From positions 16,859 through 80,858 of the IMG/VR virus record IMGVR_UViG_3300028804_000003: a stretch of DNA of 64,000 bases. The stretch is one strand, 5' to 3'. The notes beneath the pieces are model-generated. The model ran no database searches and was not told the origin of the DNA. It was given only the letters and a program-made list of their open reading frames with translations. This stretch comes from a virus (taxonomy: Duplodnaviria > Caudoviricetes). Below are positions 3,521-64,000 of the stretch, piece by piece (within the stretch, counting starts at the first letter, position 1; each line of letters begins with the position of its first letter). The position numbers and the translations under genes are program-made.

Positions 3521-3560
3521 CAAGCAGTAGTAAGCAGTAGCAAACAGTAGCAAACAGGAG
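3521..3560 (+). repeat. 4 x 10-bp tandem repeat upstream of ssb RBS
   Basis: CAAGCAGTAG TAAGCAGTAG CAAACAGTAG CAAACAGGAG read directly; the last unit contains the RBS. Confidence 0.85.
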
Positions 3561-3566
3561 AAAACA

Positions 3567-4295
3567 ATGAGCAATGAACTTCGCCTTAACCTCATGTCCC
3601 CGCTGGTTCGCATCAGTCAGGTTTATGTGGAAAAGGCCCGCCTCTACAAGGACCCGAAGACCGGCATCGAGGCCAAGGAACCCAAGTACAGCGTCAGCAT
3701 GATCGTTGAACCGGGCGACATGACCAAGTTCAAGCGCGAGGTCGATGAAAAGCTCATCGACGTTGACTTGATTGCCGAGTGCAAGGCCATCGTCAAGCAG
3801 AAGTGGCCGGAGCTGGACCTGAAGGAGATGTTCCCGAAGAAGCCTGACGGCACGAACGACTGGCCGCTGAAGAAGGGTGACGACATCATCGCCCTCTCTG
3901 CCAAGAAGGGGAAGAAGAGCAATCTCGATTTCCTTGCTGGCAAGTACCAGATCGGAACCACGGCCAGCGTGAAAGTCCCGCCGCGCCTCTCCTACTTCGA
4001 CCCCAAGGTCGGCAAGTGGGCGACTCTCGACCGCGACAATCCCGAGGATCTGAAGATCATCAAGAAGCTGTTTCTGCCGGGGAACTATGCGATGCTGGAA
4101 CTCAGCATCGTCCCGAATGAAGTCAACGGCAAGTGCTATCTCACCTTCTACGTGAACCATGTTCGCTTCAAGAAGGTCGGTGATCGCATCGGCGGCGGCA
4201 ACTCGATGATGGATCGCTTCGACGGCATCGACGGTGGCGAGGGTGACGTGGACCCGACCGCTGGTGACGACGACTTCGGCGCAGACGACATCTAA
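3567..4295 (+). CDS. single-stranded DNA-binding protein (DUF2815-like)
   Basis: 'EPKYSVSMI', acidic C-terminal tail (GDDDFGADDI), located between the DUF2800 nuclease and polA as in related phages. Confidence 0.8.
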   Translation: MSNELRLNLMSPLVRISQVYVEKARLYKDPKTGIEAKEPKYSVSMIVEPGDMTKFKREVDEKLIDVDLIAECKAIVKQKWPELDLKEMFPKKPDGTNDWPLKKGDDIIALSAKKGKKSNLDFLAGKYQIGTTASVKVPPRLSYFDPKVGKWATLDRDNPEDLKIIKKLFLPGNYAMLELSIVPNEVNGKCYLTFYVNHVRFKKVGDRIGGGNSMMDRFDGIDGGEGDVDPTAGDDDFGADDI

Positions 4296-8615: not shown

Positions 8616-9353
8616 ATGCGATATATGGGTTCGAAAAGTAGACACGCGGAGTCTTTAATAAGCATCATGCAACCGAGTAGGTATCCAGCATATGTAGAGC
8701 CCTTTGTAGGTGGGGCCAATTTGATAGATAAAGTAGAATGCCCCACACGAATCGGATGCGATGTAGACGCTGATTTAATTTGTTTATGGAAAGAAGTGTC
8801 CAAAGGATGGATGCCTCCCCTTTCTATTACAGAAGAGGAGTACAGGGTTCTTAAACTCGCTAAAGAACCTAGCCCTTTGCGGGGATATGCCGCCTTCGCA
8901 CTATCCTTTGGGGGTAAGAAATTCGGAGGATGGAGCCGAGATAAACAACAAAGCGACTACTCAAAAAGGGGATATACATCTGCTACTAAACAATTCCCGA
9001 AATTACTGGGCGTTCAATTTTTTAATTGTTCATATGAATTTTCTCCTTTACCAGAGGGGGCTTTAGTGTACTGTGATCCCCCATATATTGGCACTACCAA
9101 ATACTCGTCAAAGTTCGATCACGAAGCTTTTTGGGGGTGGGTACGTAAAACGTCACAAAGGCATCACGTATATGTTTCGGAGTACTTAGCGCCAAATGAT
9201 TTTACGTGCGTTTGGGAAAAACAGACTAAGTCCGGTATCAGATGTAAAAATACATCAGAAAAAAACGGAGAAACTCTTCACGTTCATATAGGAGAAGACG
9301 ATGACAACAAAGAGACTCTATCTGGCTGGCCCTATTGCGGGGCTGACCTATGA
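8616..9353 (+). CDS. Dam/D12-class N6-adenine DNA methyltransferase
   Basis: 'RYMGSK', 'YVEPFVGG' SAM-binding motif, 'YCDPPY' catalytic motif; AT-rich. Confidence 0.9.
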   Translation: MRYMGSKSRHAESLISIMQPSRYPAYVEPFVGGANLIDKVECPTRIGCDVDADLICLWKEVSKGWMPPLSITEEEYRVLKLAKEPSPLRGYAAFALSFGGKKFGGWSRDKQQSDYSKRGYTSATKQFPKLLGVQFFNCSYEFSPLPEGALVYCDPPYIGTTKYSSKFDHEAFWGWVRKTSQRHHVYVSEYLAPNDFTCVWEKQTKSGIRCKNTSEKNGETLHVHIGEDDDNKETLSGWPYCGADL

Positions 9354-18156: not shown

Positions 18157-21100
18157 TCACCCATTCGTCGGATAGCCAATCAGGTACACCTTCAGACCAG
18201 CGCCCGCAATGGTGGAGCCCACTGCGTCGATGTCGATGGTGATTTCCGCATCGTCGGCCAGCGAGGAGTCCGAGATGACACGCGGCGTGGCTGCCGTGGT
18301 CGTGGTTTTCTCGGAAGCATCGAAGGTCAGCTTGGTCGAGAGGATCGTAGAGCCCGACTCGTTCACGTCCACGGTGAGCAAAGTGCCGCCCGTGGGAGCC
18401 GTGGTGACCGAAGCGCGAATGTCCGTCAGCGTGAAGGCGAACGGCATGCGGAAGGTCGTCTTGGCCGTGCCCGTGGTCAGGGACGTGGTCTCATCCGAAA
18501 CTGCGATGGCGATGACCTGAGTCGTCGGAACGACAGGCTTGCCATTCGCACGGAAGTATCGGACATAGACGTTGTCACCGTTGTCCTGAGTCACATAGGC
18601 CATGTCACCGGCAGCCGTGGTGATGTTCGCGCCACCCGGCAACACGAGGGTCGTGGCATTGTGCGTCAGCGTGAGCGCACCATCGAAGATGAGCCATGCA
18701 CCACGACCATCCTTGGCCGTACCGAAGTCGATGTCCGTGATCGTGGTCGTGCCGGTGATGTGGAACAGACCACCCTCACCGAGGCTCACCGTGGCCGCAG
18801 AGGCTACGTTGGAGCCCTTCTCCCACAGCGCGGCCAGTGCATCCGGCGTGACACCCTTGGTCGTGTTGGTGCCAGCCAGCGCTTCCGTGGTGGACGCAGC
18901 AAGGAACGAACCACCACCGTCAATAGCAGTGCCATCGGCGCGCTGGTAGACCACGCAGTAGACATTGTCTGCGTTGTCCTGAATGAAGAGCGCGCGGTCG
19001 TTCGCGGCGGTCGTGATGTTGGCCGCACCCGGCAGAAGCAAGGTCGTAGCATTGTGAGTCAGAGTCAGGATGTCGTCAAAGACAACCCAAGCCCAACGAC
19101 CATTCTTCGCGGTCGCCCAGTCGATGTCCGTGATCGTGGTCGTGCCGGTGATGTGGAAGTATCCACCTTCAGCGAACGTGACGGTAGCCGCCGAGGCGAC
19201 ATCTGCACCCTTCTCCCACAGAGCCGCAATCGCGTCAGCCGTGGCAGCCTTGGCCGTGTCGGTGCCGGTCAGGATTTCGGTCGTGCTGGTGAGTGAGATG
19301 CTGGACGACACAACAGCCGTGCCGTCCGCGCGCTGATACCAGACGCAGATGACATTGTCGGAAGCATCCTGCACGAACATTGCACGATCACCGGCAGCGG
19401 TCGTGATGTTCGCATTACCCGGCAGCTTGAGGGTCGTGGCATTGTGAGTCAGGGTCAGAATACCGTCGAAAATCACGATGGCTGGACGACCGTTCTTGGC
19501 GGTAGCCCAGTCGATGTCCGTGATGGTCGTGGTGCCGGTGATGTGGAAGTACCCACCTTCACCAAGGCTTACAGTCGCGGCAGAGGCCACGTCAGAGCCC
19601 TTCTCCCACAGGGCAGCCAAGGAGTCCGGGGTGACCGCCACGGCCACGGAAGTGCCCGTCAAGGTCTGCGTGGTGGACGCGGCGGTGAACGAAGAGTTCA
19701 CGAGAGGTGTACCATCGGCGCGCTGATACCAGACGCAGATGACATTGTCTGACGCATCTTGCACGAAGCAAGCCGTGTCACCGGCAGCCGTGGTGATGCT
19801 GGCCGCACCCGGCAGCTTGAGAGTCGTAGCATTGTAGGTGAGGGTGAGTGCGCCGTCGAAAGTGACCATGGCCCAACGACCATTCTTCGCGGTGGCCCAG
19901 TCAATGTCCGTGATCGTGGTCGTGCCGGTGATGTGGAAGAAACCACCCTCGGCAAAGGATACGGTGGCCGCAGAAGCCACGTCAGAGCCCTTCTCCCAAA
20001 GAGCAGCCAGTGCATCTGGAGTCACATAAGCCGCCGTGTCGGTGCCCTGCAAAGCCTCAGTAGTGGTGGCCGCAGTCAGTCCGGCAGATGCCACAATCGC
20101 AGTACCGTCCGCGCGCTGATACCAGACGCAATAGACATTGTCCGAGGAGTCCTGAATGAATGCAGCGCGGTCACCGGCAGCCGTGGTGATGTTCGCGCCA
20201 CCCGGAAGGATCAAGCTCGTGGCATTATGAGTCAGTGTCAGGATGCCATCGAATACGAGGATGGCTTCACGGCCATCAGTAGCCGTGGACCAATCAATAT
20301 CCGTGATCGTGGTCGTGCCCGTCACATGGAAGTATCGGCCATTGCCGATGGTGATGGTGGACGCGGACGCGATGTCAGAGCCCTTCTTCCACAGACTGGC
20401 GAGCTTGGCCGGATCGACCGCCTTGCTGGCCACAGTGCCCGTAAGAACTTGGGTGTTGGATGCGAAGGCAGTGGCGTTCTGGTTCAGCTTCTTGAAGACG
20501 AGCGCCGTGGAGCCAACCGTGATCGGGTTGTTCGTGGTGAGCATCCACAGGGTATCCGGGTTCGCGGTGCCTTCCGTGACTGTGATGAGCACACCAGCAT
20601 ACACCTCGGTCGTGCCATCATCGAAATCGAGCGCACGATAGGGAGAAGCATCGACCACATACAGGCCGTTCTCTGACGGCGTGGTCTGATCTTTCAGGAA
20701 CACCACATCATCCTGCGCAAGGGTCACACCATTGATAACATCACCGGGATTGAGGGCGGTGGCAATCGTGACATTGGCCGTGGAACAGACGCGAGCCGTG
20801 ATGGAAGTGTCACCGGGGATGATGACGGAGTCGGATTCGAACACGCGGCGAACGCCGGTCGCGGTCACGTAGATCGCGGCCAGCACACCATTCTTGACAA
20901 CCACTTCTTCCGCCAGCGCATTGTCGGTGACAGTCAGGTCAGCGCCGAGGTCGTTGTCCACCATGACTACGCCGCGCTGGACGGCAGCCATCTTGAGCAC
21001 GGGCGATCCACCCGAGGTGCCTGACATGATGAAGGTCTGGTTCTGACGAAGCTGTGCTGTAGTGAGAACCTTGAGGTTTTCACCAGACCAAGTGATGGTC

Positions 21101-21207
21101 AGTTCGGACGTGATCGCAGCATCGAGCACACCATCACTGTTGTTGATGGCAGTCTCTTTCTGCGTCTGCGACGAACTGACTTCCGTGCGACCAAGGTTGT
21201 TCGACAT
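18157..21207 (-). CDS. long tail fiber protein with five ~130-aa repeats
   Basis: Thr/Ala-rich; DUF2793-like N-terminus; five copies of 'TPDALAALWEKGSDVASA...FHITGTTTITDI...TAAGD...YQRADG'. Confidence 0.8.
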   Translation of the reverse strand: MSNNLGRTEVSSSQTQKETAINNSDGVLDAAITSELTITWSGENLKVLTTAQLRQNQTFIMSGTSGGSPVLKMAAVQRGVVMVDNDLGADLTVTDNALAEEVVVKNGVLAAIYVTATGVRRVFESDSVIIPGDTSITARVCSTANVTIATALNPGDVINGVTLAQDDVVFLKDQTTPSENGLYVVDASPYRALDFDDGTTEVYAGVLITVTEGTANPDTLWMLTTNNPITVGSTALVFKKLNQNATAFASNTQVLTGTVASKAVDPAKLASLWKKGSDIASASTITIGNGRYFHVTGTTTITDIDWSTATDGREAILVFDGILTLTHNATSLILPGGANITTAAGDRAAFIQDSSDNVYCVWYQRADGTAIVASAGLTAATTTEALQGTDTAAYVTPDALAALWEKGSDVASAATVSFAEGGFFHITGTTTITDIDWATAKNGRWAMVTFDGALTLTYNATTLKLPGAASITTAAGDTACFVQDASDNVICVWYQRADGTPLVNSSFTAASTTQTLTGTSVAVAVTPDSLAALWEKGSDVASAATVSLGEGGYFHITGTTTITDIDWATAKNGRPAIVIFDGILTLTHNATTLKLPGNANITTAAGDRAMFVQDASDNVICVWYQRADGTAVVSSSISLTSTTEILTGTDTAKAATADAIAALWEKGADVASAATVTFAEGGYFHITGTTTITDIDWATAKNGRWAWVVFDDILTLTHNATTLLLPGAANITTAANDRALFIQDNADNVYCVVYQRADGTAIDGGGSFLAASTTEALAGTNTTKGVTPDALAALWEKGSNVASAATVSLGEGGLFHITGTTTITDIDFGTAKDGRGAWLIFDGALTLTHNATTLVLPGGANITTAAGDMAYVTQDNGDNVYVRYFRANGKPVVPTTQVIAIAVSDETTSLTTGTAKTTFRMPFAFTLTDIRASVTTAPTGGTLLTVDVNESGSTILSTKLTFDASEKTTTTAATPRVISDSSLADDAEITIDIDAVGSTIAGAGLKVYLIGYPTNG
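18530..20466 (-). repeat. five ~390-bp imperfect tandem coding repeats
   Basis: Near-identical DNA segments, e.g. GATGTCCGTGATCGTGGTCGTGCCGGTGATGTGGAA recurring at about 18731, 19123, 19513, 19903 and 20297; boundaries approximate. Confidence 0.85.
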
Positions 21208-21216
21208 AGCTTCTCC

Positions 21217-24200
21217 TTACGTGTCCTCAATCAGAACTCGGGTCATGCGACCCGGCCCGTATCCGCTGCTTGCCCCTGACAAGCTCGTGGCCTGTTGTAC
21301 CATGATGTCAAGGTGCTTGAAAGCCACAAAATCTGAGTAGCCCAGTTCGGCCACAATCTCATTATCCGTGGCGTTTGCCGTGATATAAGACCCCGGCTGC
21401 GTGGTGAAAGTGGAGCCTGAACTGGACAGGTTATCCGGCACGTCAAACTCATAGAGCAGAGCCGTGCGGATTTCCGAGGCCGTCAGAGTCAGACTGGTTG
21501 CCCCAGTAACCTCAAAGGTCACATCCGTGTTCGATATGAGAGTCGGACGCCACAGGCCACCGCTGAATGCCCACGTGTAATACGGCCAGCGGCGGATCGT
21601 GACGAGGTAGTTGTTCAGGTCATTGGCTGACAGAGTGTTCACTTCAGTGCCATCACTGAGTTTGACTATCTTGCGATTGCGGCGAGACCAAGTGATCGTC
21701 AGGTCACCAGTACCCGCACCGATGTCTCGGGTAATAGTCGGCACGGTAGGAGTCCACGGCAGTGCTGCATACCCCTGAATAGTGACGGACTTGGAACCGA
21801 TGGATGCTTCCGCTTGTGAGGGACCAACTGCCTTATAGTTGAGCAAGGTTTCAATACGAGCATCGCTGACACCTGAAGCATCGGTGAAAAGCTCCCCGAT
21901 GAGCACGAGCTTGTCACCTTCCTTGTGCAGGTCCACTGCATAGTCGGTGCTGTTACGAGCGCGCAACAGATTAGAAAGAGTGAAACTGCCATCGCTGTTT
22001 TCAGTGACCGTCATGAACTGGATGAGTTCCCACCTACCGTTCTTACCGAAGGCAGCCGTGTTTGATCCACGCAGCAAGTCATCCTCTGTGCAGCTTGCGA
22101 GCAGAGTGGCATCACCCGCAGTCACGATTACGGTCATGGTATTCACAGTATCCGTTTGCAACAGGGAGTCCGGCGTGTCCGGCAGACTGGTTACGATGCA
22201 TACGACACCTTCGTTAGTGTTAGCGGCCACTTCAGCATATGAAGTAGAGTCAACGAAAGAGAAGTAGGCGGCAGAACCGAGCCAAGAGGTCGTCTTGTTG
22301 ATCGGACTGATGTGCATATACAACGGGAACTTACCCGTAGAGGTCATATCATGGCCAGCGTCAAGCAGAGGCACATCAAGAATGTAAAGCTCCCCACCAA
22401 GGTCATACGGGATCGCCTGAGTGTAACCGCCACCGGCATAGGCATTGAAGGACACTGCTTCGTCCGACTGGAAGCTAGTACCACGGACACCAATCGAGAA
22501 GTCGTTGTTGTAGGTGACCTCGGAAGCCTTCACGGTGTAAGTCAACTGGCCGATGATGACGGAGCCCACATCACCCGGTTCGACCTTGAAGAACTTCTGA
22601 GGCAGACGGAAGTCATAGGACACGCGCGAAGACCACGCCATCCAGAGCGCGCGGTTGGCGAGCGTCTTGGCTTCGGTCGCAGTCATAGCGATTGGAACTT
22701 CATAGGTGATCTGTTCGTTGGACCCGTTGGTCTCAATGAACTGCGAACGGGTGGCGATCTGCATGGACCACTGGTAGGACAGGGCCTTGTCCAGATAGCG
22801 CAGAAGCACACGCTGAGGCACAGCAATCTCTTCTTCACGGCGGAAGGTGAAGCTCACGGACTCCGGCTGCTGTGCGGATGCCAGCAATGTCTCACCATCG
22901 GCCACGTCGAAATCGGTACTGCTGTAGCCCACCGGCTTGCGCAAGAACTTCACCATACCATCAGACTCGATCACGTCGATACGATAGATGGCAGAGATGG
23001 CATTGATGACAGAGCGATAGGACGTGATCTGCGAGATGACCGCGCCGTCAATTTCATCATCAATCTCAGGGTCCACATAGATTTCCGAGATGAGGTAGCC
23101 AGCATAGAGTGCCATGCCTGTGATAAAGTCAGCCAGCGGCATGCGGGCATCACTGAGGCGGTCGTAGTAGAACAGTGACAAGGCATTAGCCATGCTATCC
23201 GACTGACCCGTACCCGCTGCGCCGCCACCGCTGAACCCGATAGCAGCAAACATACGAATCTTGGAAGAGAACATGCGGGTGCTGCTGTCCACGTAGTATT
23301 GGCCGAAGGTATCCGTGAACGTGTTGATAGTCATGAAAGTCAGGTCAAGCTCATGTGTGCTGCCGTCATTGGTCGTCTGCCAAGACAGGTAGCCATTCGA
23401 CATGTCATGCAAGAAGTTATACTTGTCATAAGCTGGCGGCAACTTACCAGTCAGGTCCACGCTTCCACGTTCATCACCGGAGACATGGTACTTGTAGCAC
23501 ATGCCATTCGTCAGCATGACGATGTAGACCTCTTCCTCTTTGTAGTAGTAGAGGTTGTTAATGGTCGTCGGCATGGTCTTGAAAATGGACTTAGTGAACT
23601 TGCCGGGAAACTCACGGCTTGCACCCGGCTCAATCACGTACTCATAGATGATGTTGCCGTCCACACATGCCATGGTGGCGCTCGCAATCGGCGGCGGCAA
23701 AACTCTACCGGGACAAAACTGATCGTACTCGACACCTGATTCTACAAGCTCGATTTCGAAAACATCCGTACCTCCTTCGAGTCGCATTACAGCGAGGCCA
23801 GTGCCCGTATAGAAGGACTGCGCAAAGACGTAGGTATCAACCCCCTTCAATCCATAACTATACTGCGCTCCATAGAACTTCGGATAGTTCACGTAGCCCT
23901 GAGAATAGGGGATGAGGTCAGATGAAAGGGTATCACTGAATGGCAACACATGTGATCCCGTGAATCCGGTCCTTGCGCCAAGCCAGTTTACGACAGTGCC
24001 GCTGAGGGGATCAACCATGACAATAGGTTGCCTACCCAACCCACCGCGAGCCATACCGAGAATCACATTGAGCCACGGGATGTAAGTCAGACCGTAGTCA
24101 GAGACGCTGGTAAACTGAAAACCCTTGGTATGAGTCAGGTCCGCAGTCGTCTTGTCTCCCACGTTGTTATCCCAACCAACACCGTCCCCAGTGTTCGCGT

Positions 24201-59940: not shown

Positions 59941-60545
59941 GTTACCCGTTAAGGTTAACGCGGGGTTACCGTTAACTCATTGATAACCTTACGAATTAAG
60001 GTTAATAACCCCCTAATGTGCACCCGAAATTAACCATGTCTGTTAACGTTAAGGCACATGGTTAACAAAAGGTGGCTATTAACAAAGGGTTAACCTTAAG
60101 AGTTAAGGTTAACGTTCCCTCTCCTGTTCACTCATCATTAACCTTATCTATTAACCTTAACACATTGATGTTGTTGACTCATCTATCATTGTGTGCATCA
60201 AAGATATTCCATAATAACTATTATGCGAATGACGAATGGCAGCGAGGGGTAGTATGGTTAACCCACTGGTATAGTAGAGTAAGAGGTTATTAACCCTATT
60301 TAATAAGGTTAACAAAGGGTTACTGTTCATACTCTGTTAACCCTAAGAATTAAGGTTAATGCCCTGTAAAGGGTAAGGCCTTGTTAACGTTAACAAACAT
60401 GGTTAATAACCCCTTAATGGTAAGGAATCGTTAACCTTACTGAACATAGTGAACAAGGGGTTAATCAGGGCACCGGCGTTAACCACGTTCCTTAATACCC
60501 TACTTATCAGGTAGACTATACAGACTCTCTAGGAATGGTTAACAA
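59941..60545. repeat. degenerate 47-bp-periodic TTAA/GTTAAC array
   Basis: 14 perfect GTTAAC in about 600 bp; TTAA anchors at 59949/59996/60043/60090/60138 and 60290/60337/60384/60431/60479. Confidence 0.85.
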
Positions 60546-60719
60546 GGCGTTGTGGGCAAGCGGCCTATACCCTAGCGCCACGGCGCTGCAATCACAGAAA
60601 GCCATTCCTGCAAATGCGCTCTACAGATTGAATCCTGAAATCATGATCTAGCACGCGAGTCCTTGTGTAATCATGGCAATCGTTTAGAATTGCCTGATTT
60701 ACACTCTTAAAGGGAATTC

Positions 60720-60957
60720 GGATTCATTCGGATTCATTCCAAAAACCTTGAATGATCCCATTGATTTTACAAATGAATCAATGAATCCGTGTTTTTTCTG
60801 GATTCATTCGGATTCATTCGATTTCAGCATGGGCACAATTTGCCTTATTTGCTCTAAATCATTGATATTAAACGGCAATCGAATGAATCCGACGAAAACA
60901 GGCTTTCCGAATGAATCCGTTGAAATCATTGAATGAATCCGATTCCCGAATGAATCC
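60720..60957. repeat. GGATTCATTC iteron-like cluster (4 forward + 4 reverse)
   Basis: Forward at 60720, 60730, 60800, 60810; reverse (GAATGAATCC) at 60881, 60909, 60931, 60948. Confidence 0.9.
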
Positions 60958-61163
60958 AAGCGCGCTTTCCATTCTAAATTCTTCCCGGCCTTCACAGATT
61001 GCCAGTTTTTCCGCTATTTGCGCCGCTCATGATTCCCGCGCTCGCAAGCTCTTGATATGTGGCCACAATAACCTTGAAAACCTATCTGATTCCGTGGCGC
61101 TATATAGAGCGCGATAAGCTCCCAAAGGGTCACGCAACGGCTGACTTGCCATGCTTGCCACAA

Positions 61164-61196
61164 TTAACGGTTTTTTAACACTTTGCCGTTATAGAT
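61164..61196 (+). promoter_or_regulatory. early promoter with perfect CtrA-type box
   Basis: TTAA-CGGTTTT-TTAAC-N10-TATAGAT. Confidence 0.7.
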
Positions 61197-61261
61197 CAAT
61201 GCCTGCACTCACATGCACGTGGGAGCAACGGCGCTCTTGCCGTCCAAACATGGAGTCTAAC

Positions 61262-61378
61262 ATGTCCCCTTTTTCCGCTTTCTTTTCCGCTGGACTCGCT
61301 CTTGCTATCGCCACGGGAATCCCGTTCGTGTCCGGCATGCTCGACACTTTCGCCGCTATCGTTTCGGCGTTGCAGTAG
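61262..61378 (+). CDS. 38-aa hydrophobic peptide (first early gene)
   Basis: GGAG RBS; MSPFSAFFSAGLALAIATGIPFVSGMLDTFAAIVSALQ. Confidence 0.6.
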   Translation: MSPFSAFFSAGLALAIATGIPFVSGMLDTFAAIVSALQ

Positions 61379-61389
61379 GAGTCGGGCTC

Positions 61390-61626
61390 ATGACCGCGTC
61401 AAGCTATACCATTTCACAGATTCGCGCCGTGCCGCTCTATTGCGAGCCGGGAAGGCTGGAGTCCGTGCTCGACTATATCGCCGGAATTGACAAGGCCATA
61501 GAGTCGGCCTTGCGCATGCGCTTGCACAATCCCTGCAAGGGGATTCGCTACACTCGCAACGGCGGAATCCGGTTTTTGAGAATCGGACGGCTGCAATTCT
61601 CATTCTGCATTTGCAAGAAAGGTTGA
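61390..61626 (+). CDS. early hypothetical protein
   Basis: AGGAG RBS. Confidence 0.65.
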   Translation: MTASSYTISQIRAVPLYCEPGRLESVLDYIAGIDKAIESALRMRLHNPCKGIRYTRNGGIRFLRIGRLQFSFCICKKG

Positions 61627-61630
61627 CATC

Positions 61631-62241
61631 ATGGAAACGGAAACAATCCCGGCATGGCGAGTCGAATATCTGGCAAAGCGCAAGGCTCTTGCCGAATTGA
61701 TGGAAGCTCACAAGGTGACCATTGCCGCGCGCCGAGTCGACACAAGGCCGGACGGCGACTCCGATTGGCACAAGAGCGCCGCGCATGCGGCCTTTGACGT
61801 GCTCCACAATGGGCGAGTCGTTTACAGCGGCCACTATAGCGCCGGAAGCCTTGCGGCCTTGCGGCCTTGCCTGACACGTTGCAGGCTTTCCGCGCGGCCT
61901 TCACGAAAGGGCGCAAGGGCTCGCATTGGATTTTCGCCACGGAGTCAGATGTGAAACACGCTTTCAGTGTTCGACAATCAAGCCGGTTGACACGTGATGA
62001 ATCGGACATTCTGGATTGTGTCCGGCGCGCATGGCTTCCCGAATCGGTTGACATAATTCAATCGCTGCTTTCCGATGCAACGGAAGAGTCCTTTTCCGAT
62101 TGGTGCGGCGATTTGGGAATGGACACGGACTCGCGCAAGGCTCTTGCCACATGGGAAGCATGCCGGGAATCTGATAGGGTTATGCGCCGGACATTTGGCG
62201 CGGACTTTGACTCGGCTGTAGACATCGCGCGGGAGTTTTGA
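61631..62241 (+). pseudogene. early gene split by an 8-bp tandem duplication
   Basis: ORFs 61631-61954 and 61867-62241 fuse in frame into one 200-aa protein if one GCCTTGCG unit (61848-61871) is removed. Confidence 0.65.
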
Positions 62242-62243
62242 GA

Positions 62244-62390
62244 ATGTTCTATATTGTATGCAAATCGGACTCCAGCCTGTTTTGGAGTAACCGGCACGGA
62301 TGGACTGATAAGGAATCGGCTGACATTTTCACGGCGCAAGAGTCCGTGCTCTTGAGCTTGCCGATTGACGGCAAATGGATGGAGTTTTGA
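62244..62390 (+). CDS. 48-aa early protein
   Basis: GGAG RBS; MFYIVCKSDSSLFWSNRHGW...; translated by hand. Confidence 0.6.
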   Translation: MFYIVCKSDSSLFWSNRHGWTDKESADIFTAQESVLLSLPIDGKWMEF

Positions 62391-62392
62391 GA

Positions 62393-62725
62393 ATGGAAAC
62401 GCCGCAATTCTTCAAGGCTAGTGACGTGGCCGAGTCTCTTGGTTACGTGCTTACACGTGGAGTCGGTGGTAGGTTGTTTGTCGTTTGGAGACGTGGCACG
62501 AATGGCCGCAAGAGCAACCGATTCGACTCCATCAAGGCCGCAATCGCCCATTGCCGGGAACATGCAATTCCGGCTGACTTTCCGGTCAAGCCTTTGATGC
62601 ACAGTGATTCCGCGATTGACCGTTGCCAATGCGGCGAATGTGGCCTGTCATGGGATGACGGCAAGGTGACCGGCTGGACTCCTAGTCCGGCTGGAAGGTG
62701 TCCGTTTGAGTATTTCCACAACTGA
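62393..62725 (+). CDS. early hypothetical protein with C-terminal Cys motif
   Basis: 'CQCGECGLSWDD...TPSPAGRCPFEYFH'. Confidence 0.65.
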   Translation: METPQFFKASDVAESLGYVLTRGVGGRLFVVWRRGTNGRKSNRFDSIKAAIAHCREHAIPADFPVKPLMHSDSAIDRCQCGECGLSWDDGKVTGWTPSPAGRCPFEYFHN

Positions 62726-62737
62726 GGAGTCCAGATC

Positions 62738-62932
62738 ATGAAAACCGTGTTTTTCTTGTTACTCATGGCAACGCCGGACGGCAACCTTTGGACCATGGAC
62801 TCCGGGCTTACGCAAGAGGATTGCGGCAAGGCCATTGCAGCCGGATTTTCCGGTTATGTGGATGAGCGCAACGGCTGGCATGATATCCCGGACGGCGCGG
62901 CCTATATCTGCAAACCGGAGGATGAGCGTTAA
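62738..62932 (+). CDS. small early protein
   Basis: AGGAG RBS, hydrophobic N-terminus. Confidence 0.65.
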   Translation: MKTVFFLLLMATPDGNLWTMDSGLTQEDCGKAIAAGFSGYVDERNGWHDIPDGAAYICKPEDER

Positions 62933-62961
62933 CCTTTTGTTAACACCTTCCCTGTATACCT
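62929..62961 (+). promoter_or_regulatory. early promoter with perfect CtrA-type box
   Basis: TTAA-CCTTTTG-TTAAC-N10-TATACCT. Confidence 0.7.
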
Positions 62962-63010
62962 CACATCACGGCGCGGCATGGTGCAGCGCTGCTAATCTCA
63001 GGAGTCTAAA

Positions 63011-64000
63011 ATGGAACTGATGCAGGCAAACAAGAATTGGCTTTCCCGTCCGGCAGATGAGCGCTTCACGTCATTGATTGACTTGCGCGATAAGGTGACG
63101 GATGAGCGCCGCAAGTCGCGCGCTGGAGTCGTGTCGAGCAAGTCTCTTGCCTTCCAGCCGGTTGACGGCGACTCGACGTTCAAGGGAATCGAAATTGTCA
63201 GCAAGAAAACCGGCAACGTCATTGCGCCGACTCATTGGGCCTTTGGCCAGATTGCCGCGCGACTCGGCGCACCTGCAAGCTACTTGCGCAACCTTCCCGC
63301 ACCTCTTGCAGCCGATTGCCTGAATTACTCGACAATCAAGGCCGACTCGGAAGATGTGGGACTCCTTATCGGCACGGATGACGCCGGGAAGCCTTCCACA
63401 TTGCGCGCGGCAACCGGCCCTAAATATGGGCGCGTTTGGAATCAGTCCATTGCCGACTCTCTTGTCAACCTGTTTGGCGATGGACAAACCGGCGCTTTCC
63501 GTGTTCCCGGCGCTTATGGTTCAACGGACATTGTCACCGACAAGATGGACTCGACTCTCTATGCAAGTGACCGTGACATGTTTGTGTTTTTGGCGGATCA
63601 AGAAAACCGAATCACAATCGAGAATCGCCGCAACGGCGAGTCCGGCTCACTTGCGCGCGGAATTTTCGTTTGGAACAGTGAAACCGGCGCAAGCTCTTTC
63701 GGAATGGCTGCTTTCTTGTTTGATTTTCGATGCAAGAATCATATCATTTGGGGCGCGTCCGAATATCGCGAGTCCCGCTTCCGTCATACGGCAAGCGCGC
63801 CGGACAAATGGCTTGACCATGTCGCGCCGGTCATCAAGGCCTATTCGGAATCATCGGCAAGGCCATATGAGGCTGCGCTTGCGGCTGCACAAGCCAAAAA
63901 GATTGATGACGTGCAAGCCTTCATGAATGACCGATTCAGCAAGCGCATGGCAACGGCAATTCTTGCCGCTCATGTCGATGAGGAATCAAGGCCGGTTGAA
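63011..64000 (+). CDS. DUF932-like protein (3'-truncated by window edge)
   Basis: AGGAG RBS; open frame to the window end; 'HWAFGQIAARLGAPASYL', 'LYASDRDMFVFL', 'RGIFVWNSETG...CKNHIIWG'; missing from the ORF track because there is no stop. Confidence 0.75.
   Translation, partial: MELMQANKNWLSRPADERFTSLIDLRDKVTDERRKSRAGVVSSKSLAFQPVDGDSTFKGIEIVSKKTGNVIAPTHWAFGQIAARLGAPASYLRNLPAPLAADCLNYSTIKADSEDVGLLIGTDDAGKPSTLRAATGPKYGRVWNQSIADSLVNLFGDGQTGAFRVPGAYGSTDIVTDKMDSTLYASDRDMFVFLADQENRITIENRRNGESGSLARGIFVWNSETGASSFGMAAFLFDFRCKNHIIWGASEYRESRFRHTASAPDKWLDHVAPVIKAYSESSARPYEAALAAAQAKKIDDVQAFMNDRFSKRMATAILAAHVDEESRPVE

Follow-up and report, generated by a model that had tools for sequence, protein, structure and literature searches.

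Selection maintains a conserved, GANTC-dense domain over the early genes of an activated-sludge siphovirus

In Alphaproteobacteria, CcrM methylates GANTC and GcrA reads the mark, a signal that is central to the cell cycle and is known to act at single promoter sites. Why would a phage carry this word at high density throughout its early genes? The question is raised by a 64,000-nucleotide stretch of viral DNA, called the window below, which covers positions 16859-80858 of IMG/VR record IMGVR_UViG_3300028804_000003 (80,858 bp, rated complete). An earlier note, made from the letters of the window, described a roughly fivefold excess of GANTC that sets in abruptly near 60.6 kb, and proposed that the motif is under selection. 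The ends of the record overlap by 130 bp inside one of the early genes, E8, giving a circular assembly of ~80,728 bp (80.7 kb). The island of GANTC sites therefore carries on at the start of the record, which we label L001 and into which the window end continues from position 131. We found that this island is a selected, conserved domain of GANTC sites, of a density type, which lies over CtrA-promoted early genes, is bounded by repeat arrays and stands in a regulatory context like that of the host.

First, we recounted the sites. The earlier figures were reproduced exactly, with 67 GANTC at 60630-63983 (52 of these at or beyond 61250) and 4 in the first 1,000 bases. The last four 1-kb bins of the window hold 16, 18, 16 and 20 sites, and all other bins 0-7. 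The in-window part of the island (60630..64000; 19.9 sites per kb) continues from L001 131 to ~3670 through genes E9-E18, and the density of ~20/kb compares with 3.3/kb in the rest of the genome, in agreement with the proposed enrichment of about five times. The whole island comprises ~119 sites in ~7 kb (window 60.5 kb to L001 ~3670; 17/kb), about a third of the 380 sites of the genome. It is followed by a middle block of 5.4 kb, up to L001 ~9100, that has ~6-7 sites per kb and is still significantly enriched (z 4.9), and the remaining 67 kb hold 3.3/kb, or 0.88 times the expectation from base composition. The density falls in steps, from 17 to ~6 to 3.3 per kb, and each step coincides with a repeat array (R2, then R3). 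The abrupt onset was confirmed in its position, with the correction that it is non-coding: it lies in iterons (GGATTCATTC / GAATGAATCC), and the first gene starts only at 61262.

A dense word might be a by-product, either the signature of foreign DNA or the trace of a preference acting on RNA (GANUC) or on protein (Asp/Glu-Ser). The early block indeed has a dinucleotide signature of its own and a G+C content at third codon positions below that of the remaining genome, this phage has many other deviating words, and an unrelated viral contig (G001) has a 4-kb island with a DUF932 gene in which GANTC, GCGC and CCGG are all raised. To set against this, the enrichment persists under shuffles that preserve amino acids and codons, a check that the earlier note had proposed. 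The 18 early genes contain 89 sites, against 44.4 +/- 3.9 in a synonymous-codon shuffle (z 11.5) and 23.8 +/- 4.4 when codon order is shuffled (z 15). The z values are 10.5 and 13.8, respectively, without four doubtful open reading frames (ORFs), and for two other gene sets of this genome, taken as controls, the GANTC z values were 1.9 and 1.1. Under Markov-1 and Markov-2 models built from the block itself, 24-25 sites would be expected; 100 are observed, which speaks against a by-product of its composition. So does the enrichment in all three frames (43/30/16 sites, against 33/5/6 under the synonymous shuffle), in the spacers of Shine-Dalgarno (SD) sequences and in non-coding DNA. The motif is also symmetric, with GAGTC at 33 and GACTC at 30, an equality that would not be required of a motif in mRNA and that fits recognition on double-stranded DNA.

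The sites were evidently paid for in codons and in protein. As remarked earlier, many of them encode Asp/Glu-Ser, and we counted 43 such dipeptides where 17 are expected; their serine codon is TCN in 43 of 43 cases, and 35 of the 105 other serines are AGY. Alignment of the DUF932 gene of this phage with distant DUF932 genes showed that its sites fall at positions that are conserved elsewhere, and that they arose by replacements (EGR to ESR, NTT to DST, QAG to ESG) as well as by synonymous choice, for example CGA-ATC instead of CGG-ATA. The ribosome-binding site (RBS) is GGAGTC in 13 of the 18 early genes, including those at 61252, 61378, 62726 and 63001 to which the earlier note had pointed; elsewhere in the genome TC seldom follows GGAG. 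TC in this place adds no pairing with the 16S rRNA, and it looks like the cheapest spot for a site. The sites have been built by amino-acid changes, by synonymous choice and through GGAGTC ribosome-binding sites.

Next, we turned to relatives. Through DUF932 homologues (60-80% identity) we reached five contigs from other samples (L021-L025), which match this phage in gene order down to a sulfotransferase gene. The earlier note had regarded an absence of the enrichment from relatives as telling against selection; all five show it, with 13.5-21.4 sites per kb in their early genes and z values of 9-12 (synonymous shuffle) and 12-17 (codon order). They also share the GGAGTC ribosome-binding sites, the CtrA boxes and a depletion of GATC and GTAC. 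GGAGTC precedes the start codon in 57 of 84 early genes. The early regions are mosaics in their gene content, and the 40 of these 84 that have no homologue among the six phages are enriched in GANTC as well. The recurrence of the same enrichment in five relatives indicates that the motif is selected, and with the shuffle tests it strongly supports the core of the original proposal.

We then scored every 4- to 6-mer and gapped word in the six phages and ordered the words by the lowest z that each reached. GANTC came first (minimum 9.1, mean 11.2), with nothing directly behind it but its own sub-words and super-words. GCGC, CCGG, AACCGG and GCAAG are as striking as GANTC when this phage is taken by itself, and they are inconsistent across the lineage; the idea that GANTC is merely one odd word of many holds for the single genome and is ruled out by the comparison of six. 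CGNAG, GGNNCC and CCNCC are strongly depleted in the early block, mostly not in the relatives. The DUF932 genes of the six phages have 16-23 sites each, spread over 55 different alignment columns, of which 27 are unique to one phage and a single one is common to all six. This turnover indicates that selection keeps density and not particular sites, and since the number of sites per length is what is conserved, the motif appears to act in cis by its density and not as a few operators. Two of these results count directly against a by-product: GANTC is the only word common to the six phages, unshared genes included, and its sites were gained independently at different positions. We regard that explanation as largely refuted and give it hardly any weight.

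What kind of phage keeps such a domain? It is a siphovirus, with genes for a family-A DNA polymerase, a ribonucleotide reductase, a tape-measure protein, a T4-type large terminase and a host-specificity tail protein like that of gene transfer agents. It comes from activated sludge, and DNA almost identical to it is present in further sludge, wastewater and river metagenomes. Contigs from four other runs include strain variants, and in a close strain the early block has been swapped in patches, as a mosaic. With few exceptions, the relatives of the host-specificity tail protein belong to phages of Alphaproteobacteria, among them Caulobacter, Rhodobacter, Brevundimonas and Roseobacter, and these relatives, together with the CtrA-box promoters described below, make it very probable from the sequence that the host is an alphaproteobacterium. 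A search of bacterial genomes for the host returned a single distant match, in a Rhodobacteraceae metagenome-assembled genome (34% identity). A nucleotide search of a phage collection with the early region gave no match, and no useful relatives came from scans of IMG/VR with E15 and with the sulfotransferase.

The CtrA box, TTAA-N7-TTAA, occurs 6 times in the genome where 0.4 are expected, and all six copies lie within 7.5 kb, between window position 60079 and L001 3727; the relatives have 3-9 each. Three of the six have the layout TTAA-N7-TTAAC/G, 10-11 nt, TATA and stand directly ahead of E1, E8 and E11. The corresponding promoter candidates are P1 at 61164..61198 (TTAACGGTTTTTTAAC, 10 nt, TATAGA) upstream of E1 and P2 at 62929..62963 (TTAACCTTTTGTTAAC, 10 nt, TATACC) upstream of E8, both on the plus strand, and a third of the same layout at L001 729, upstream of E11. 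Scans for consensus sigma-70 promoters and for terminators did not rise above shuffles. Thus the arrangement of these boxes suggests that the early genes would be driven by host RNA polymerase with CtrA.

Cultured phages of comparable hosts behave in the opposite way. The earlier note had assumed that GANTC is usually avoided, and three cultured alphaproteobacterial phages, all of Rhodobacterales, indeed have 0, 1 and 14 sites against ~160-230 expected (3.2-3.8/kb): Paracoccus R3 has none in 42 kb (NC_026608.1), RDJL Phi 1 has 1 in 62.7 kb (NC_015466.1) and RcRudolph has 14 in 65 kb (OP009285.1). Among five cultured alphaproteobacterial siphophages of the same tail type no island was found, and three of them are nearly purged of GANTC. 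Nor was an island found in Erythrobacter phage ZS04 or Mesorhizobium phage Cp1R7A-A1, which both carry DUF932. A general link between DUF932 and GANTC was considered and rejected, as distant DUF932 genes range from 0 to 11 sites per kb with no rule. We infer from the purged genomes that GANTC is dangerous to many such phages, presumably through GANTC-specific restriction from which the host is shielded by CcrM.

To explain the island, we propose that it is a density-dependent, cis-acting methylation tag of the CcrM type, on DNA that arrives methylated and whose marks are used by a density-sensitive reader. We hold this view tentatively, at somewhat less than an even chance. The phage would have loaded its first-expressed units, that is, the ~18 small genes and more weakly the next block, with the CcrM target GANTC, and the sites would be N6-adenine methylated, either by host CcrM or by a Dam-family enzyme of the phage's own. 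Given that GANTC is purged from other alphaproteobacterial phages, 380 sites would hardly be affordable without protection, of which methylation is the simplest form. By its methyl marks, the early DNA would reveal its state: it would enter with full methylation from the previous host, and replication without CcrM would turn it hemi-methylated and then unmethylated. A density-sensitive reader could keep the early genes open and expressed (or protected) on arrival and let them shut off later. Such a reader might be RNA polymerase with GcrA bound to it, or else a silencer or nuclease that is kept off by methylation.

A possible writer of the GANTC marks, judged by its gene, is a D12 / Dam-family N6-adenine methylase of 245 aa with the motifs FxGxG ... 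DPPY. Its gene (8616..9353, plus strand) lies in the replication module and is the only DNA methylase gene found. Six-frame searches of the genome revealed no MT-A70 or C5 methylase and no member of the phage Dam family PF05869.

Several observations weigh against a methylation tag. The D12 enzyme belongs to the Dam family and has its nearest relatives in Vibrio, Cellulophaga and Enterococcus phages, so it need not be specific for GANTC. The same six-frame searches found neither PF01555 (N6_N4_Mtase, the CcrM family), for which control genomes were positive, nor GcrA. We know of no methyl-sensitive silencer that reads GANTC. GcrA itself acts at promoters and not in gene bodies, and in Caulobacter it prefers the flanks YGAKTCK (PMC4647560). 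Counted on either strand, such flanks occur at 29 of 100 early sites and at 57 of 220 (26%) elsewhere, so that there is no bias, and 0 of the 15 intergenic early sites match. Most GANTC sites lie in gene bodies and SD sequences and not in promoter cores; among the three CtrA-box promoters only that at L001 729 has a GANTC in its core, in the spacer, and those at 61164 and 62929 have none. The early genes E7, E11 and E12 are poor in the motif (4-8/kb). The early block is also odd in other respects, with GCGC raised 3.7 times, CCGG 2.4 times and AACCGG ~9-14 times (mostly not common to the relatives), with AA/TT, CG and GC dinucleotides raised, and with short perfect hairpins three times too frequent (44 against 14 expected), which indicates that more than one force acts on it. 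Strong RNA or DNA structure was not found in the block, whose mean folding z (-0.6) is not really different from that of controls (-0.2 to -0.55). Finally, two other palindromes are depleted there: GATC, with 5 copies against 24 expected (0.21 times; 1.18 times in the rest of the genome), is depleted in all five relatives too, and GTAC has 0 against 24 (0.56 times in the rest).

GGNCC (8 against 35 expected, 0.23 times; 0.57 times in the rest of the genome) and CTAG (4 against 24, 0.17 times; 0.09 times in the rest) are depleted in the early block as well. Such depletion of palindromes is the pattern expected of DNA that meets restriction before counter-measures are expressed, and together with the GATC depletion of all relatives it suits a different explanation, in which the early block enters the cell, or is exposed, first, as in a two-step entry of the T5/T7 type, and GANTC sites serve as landing sites for an abundant host protein that binds GANTC, such as CcrM, or help to draw in or hold the DNA. 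The arrays that bound the blocks could then be entry-stop or end signals. The upstream one, R1 (59941..60545), consists of GTTAAC / TTAACC repeats in a 47-bp register and holds 14 of the genome's 33 GTTAAC, two TTAA-N7-TTAA boxes and only 3 GANTC. R2 (L001 ~3540-3940) has the same GTTAAC/TTAACC repeats in 47-bp register at ~3540-3760 and closes the island, and R3 (L001 ~9120-9290), with GTTAAC/TTAACC at ~9120-9185, closes the weaker middle block; in both, tandem 21-bp repeats follow. The stepwise fall of density away from R1 fits this idea, and so does the mosaicism of the early block among close strains, which resembles that of anti-defence early regions. Against it, the record is a circular assembly with its overlap inside E8, and the contigs gave no read ends or depth from which termini could be placed. 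Moreover, capsid pressure pushes the first DNA in, so that a pulling device is least needed there, and CcrM is present only briefly in the Caulobacter cell cycle. We consider first entry improbable as the reason for the island.

Spacing and iterons bear on another alternative, that methylation is irrelevant or merely modulating and that a GANTC-binding protein other than a methylase, early phage-encoded, delivered with the virion or supplied by the host, coats the early DNA. The coat would protect, compact or activate it, with the GGATTCATTC iterons as nucleation sites. The non-coding start of the island (60630..61100; ~40% G+C) has 15 GANTC, most of them in iterons. About a dozen iterons, GGATTCATTC / GAATGAATCC, lie between R1 and E1 in both orientations (60720-60960), each with a GANTC core; we grouped them into families D3, D6 and D9 and inverted pairs I5, I10, I12, I13 and I17. 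The ~12 GANTC-core iterons stand directly upstream of genes, and a strain variant (run X3) has GGATTCACTGGATTCACTGG at an iteron, with the GANTC core retained. Density that is conserved while positions turn over is also what a coat would leave. The mean gap between sites is 59.6 bp with a coefficient of variation (CV) of 0.73, against 0.98 +/- 0.09 for random placement, and pooled gaps are in excess at 15-19 bp (68 against 38.8) and 40-44 bp (41 against 25.5). There is a precedent in plasmid TraM proteins, which read GANTC arrays at oriT. On the other hand, regular spacing is weak or absent in the relatives (mean gaps 49-70 bp, CV 0.85-1.30). A helical or other periodicity of the sites was rejected, as the best period, 21 bp, reached z 2.9, below the 3.6 that marks the 95th percentile of shuffled maxima. 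No candidate protein was found among the early proteins, which lack known DNA-binding families, and the DUF932 model has no convincing fold match. It would further be a coincidence that a phage using CtrA boxes should have chosen the exact word of the host methylase, with any central base. A coat of this kind seems unlikely to us.

In a bolder reading, the island may be the phage counterpart of a CpG island, a chromatin-like domain on the kilobase scale that is set solely by the density of one methylatable word and has repeat arrays at its borders, an idea we put forward as possible, with considerable doubt. A reader would coat or clear the domain, and the incoming first-expressed genes would be treated unlike the rest of the genome and unlike replicated copies.

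The sites could instead work as a sink that titrates the methylase or its reader; the host chromosome would then remain hemi-methylated, and the cell cycle would halt at a stage that favours the phage. The phage appears to read the host cell cycle through its CtrA boxes, the island has about a third of the 380 sites, and other alphaproteobacterial phages encode GcrA or CcrM-like enzymes (PMC9437464, PMC5537653). For a sink, however, what counts is how many sites a cell contains and not where they lie, which leaves their concentration in early genes, at a cost to proteins, unexplained. One genome brings only ~120-380 sites, against ~4,500 on the Caulobacter chromosome (PMC4647560), and the sites lack a flank bias of the GcrA type. 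We find a sink quite improbable.

How does the island compare with systems already described? It resembles promoter control by CcrM and GcrA (Fioravanti 2013, PMC3667746; Haakonsen 2015, PMC4647560) in the word, the host group, the neighbourhood of CtrA boxes and, presumably, the dependence on host sigma-70 RNA polymerase. In that system, one or a few methylated sites lie at -35, -10 or +1 and have YGAKTCK flanks, whereas here ~120 sites extend over 7 kb of coding DNA, mostly outside promoter cores and with no bias in their flanks. The clustered TTAA-N7-TTAA ahead of early genes recalls the CtrA-box early regions of 'lytic deferment' (Mascolo 2022, PMC9437464), and the clustering described there is present here. 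One phage of that study, Mesorhizobium Cp1R7A-A1, likewise has a DUF932 gene in its early region and known CtrA-box early promoters; unlike our phage, it has an ordinary GANTC density of 2-3/kb in that region. A systematic search of such phages found no positional asymmetry of GcrA-type sites in any (PMC9437464). Restriction-site avoidance is similar in that codon shuffles reveal selection acting on a short palindrome, and the block does avoid GATC, GTAC, GGNCC and CTAG. For GANTC the sign is opposite: the word is enriched here, while related phages purge it almost wholly.

The GATC clusters of oriC and P1 pac occupy a few hundred bp of non-coding DNA. These clusters (E. coli oriC/SeqA GATC and P1 pac) and the GANTC near alphaproteobacterial origins (PMC9836097) have in common with the island a local excess of the site of a resident orphan methylase, which in the island, too, would be read by its methylation state. 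The island differs in being a 7-kb coding domain in which density rather than position is conserved, and as it spans ~7 kb and 18 genes we rejected a short oriC/SeqA- or P1 pac-type cluster of a few hundred non-coding bp as its description. Its non-coding start at 60630-61100, with 15 sites in iterons, could by itself be such a cluster. Phage GANTC methylases (Decewicz 2017, PMC5537653; PMC7139368) show that GANTC methylation is cared for by other phages, and their genes lie beside replication genes, as D12 does here; these papers treat enzymes and not the enrichment of sites, and the enzyme here is of another family. Full-text literature searches found no regional GANTC enrichment in a phage. 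The related literature that they returned concerns GANTC methylases (PMC5537653, PMC7139368), CtrA-box clusters of phages (PMC9437464) and a GANTC excess near chromosomal origins (PMC9836097).

Across all early genes of this lineage, sites have been kept at about one per 60 bp, even through protein changes, while phages of the same class purge the word. This contrast argues for a density-read use, on the scale of a domain, of the mark or of the bare word, a use not described in the literature searched. Many of the sites can be recoded synonymously, and the candidate writers and readers are few (CcrM, the phage D12 enzyme, GcrA and MucR). The island could reveal by what means a phage distinguishes DNA that has just entered from replicated copies, or protects its earliest genes.

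The genes of the island are ~18 small plus-strand genes, E1-E18. Family searches with them gave almost no matches, the exceptions being E8 (DUF932) and PHROG families of unknown function (E3, E4, E6 and E8). E1 (61262..61378) encodes a 38-aa hydrophobic peptide and has 2 GANTC, and E2 (61390..61626; 78 aa, no family) has 6 (25/kb); both are preceded by the SD sequence GGAGTC. E3 and E4 (61631..62241; 107 and 96 aa; phrog_4273, function unknown) hold 11 GANTC together. Both E3, whose C-terminus is junk-like, and E4 match single proteins of 207-222 aa in the relatives L023, L024 and L025, and because of this single homologue they are probably one gene in two frames, whose frameshift may be real, an assembly error or programmed. 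E5 and E6 (62244..62725; 48 and 110 aa; E6 phrog_15177, function unknown) have 9 GANTC between them. E7 (62738..62932; 64 aa; SD GGAGTC) has an N-terminus like a signal peptide and contains 1 site.

E8 (63011..64000 and on to L001 244) encodes the DUF932 protein of 367 aa, with 21 GANTC (19/kb), and is the sole early gene common to all six phages. Its structure model has a pLDDT (predicted local distance difference test) score of 81. Foldseek returned nothing at E <= 0.001, and the best VIA-align Z, 6.0, is below the noise level stated for that tool; residues 35-138 are weakly like an OB (oligonucleotide/oligosaccharide-binding) fold. DUF932 is very widespread, with >2,700 homologues at E <= 1e-20. 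In the unrelated 41-kb viral contig mentioned above (G001, IMGVR_UViG_3300032282_001937), the 4-kb island around the DUF932 gene (19000-22400) has GANTC at 9-14/kb, GCGC at 20-30/kb and CCGG at 8-16/kb, against 2.5, 7 and 3.5 elsewhere. That island has no CtrA boxes and almost no clear ORFs besides DUF932.

An 85-nt direct repeat, 87% identical, lies at L001 387-471 and 3445-3529, in the middle and at the end of the block. It sits in E9 and E18, which are the least protein-like ORFs and poor in GANTC, and may have a non-coding role, for instance as a terminator or a small RNA. The tandem 21-bp repeats behind the second and third TTAAC arrays (GTTGTGGCCAAGCTGCCCGC-like) number 6 copies at L001 3767-3936 and 4 copies at L001 9203-9288, and a 28-nt element with TTTGCCGGGAGTCT at its end occurs at L001 4373, 4401 and 9830. 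The 21-bp repeats and this element are likely to be the operator/promoter sets of the middle and later gene blocks. The middle block ends with the gene of the Sulfotransfer_2 family (L001 8105-8815), which is kept in the relatives L021, L024 and L025.

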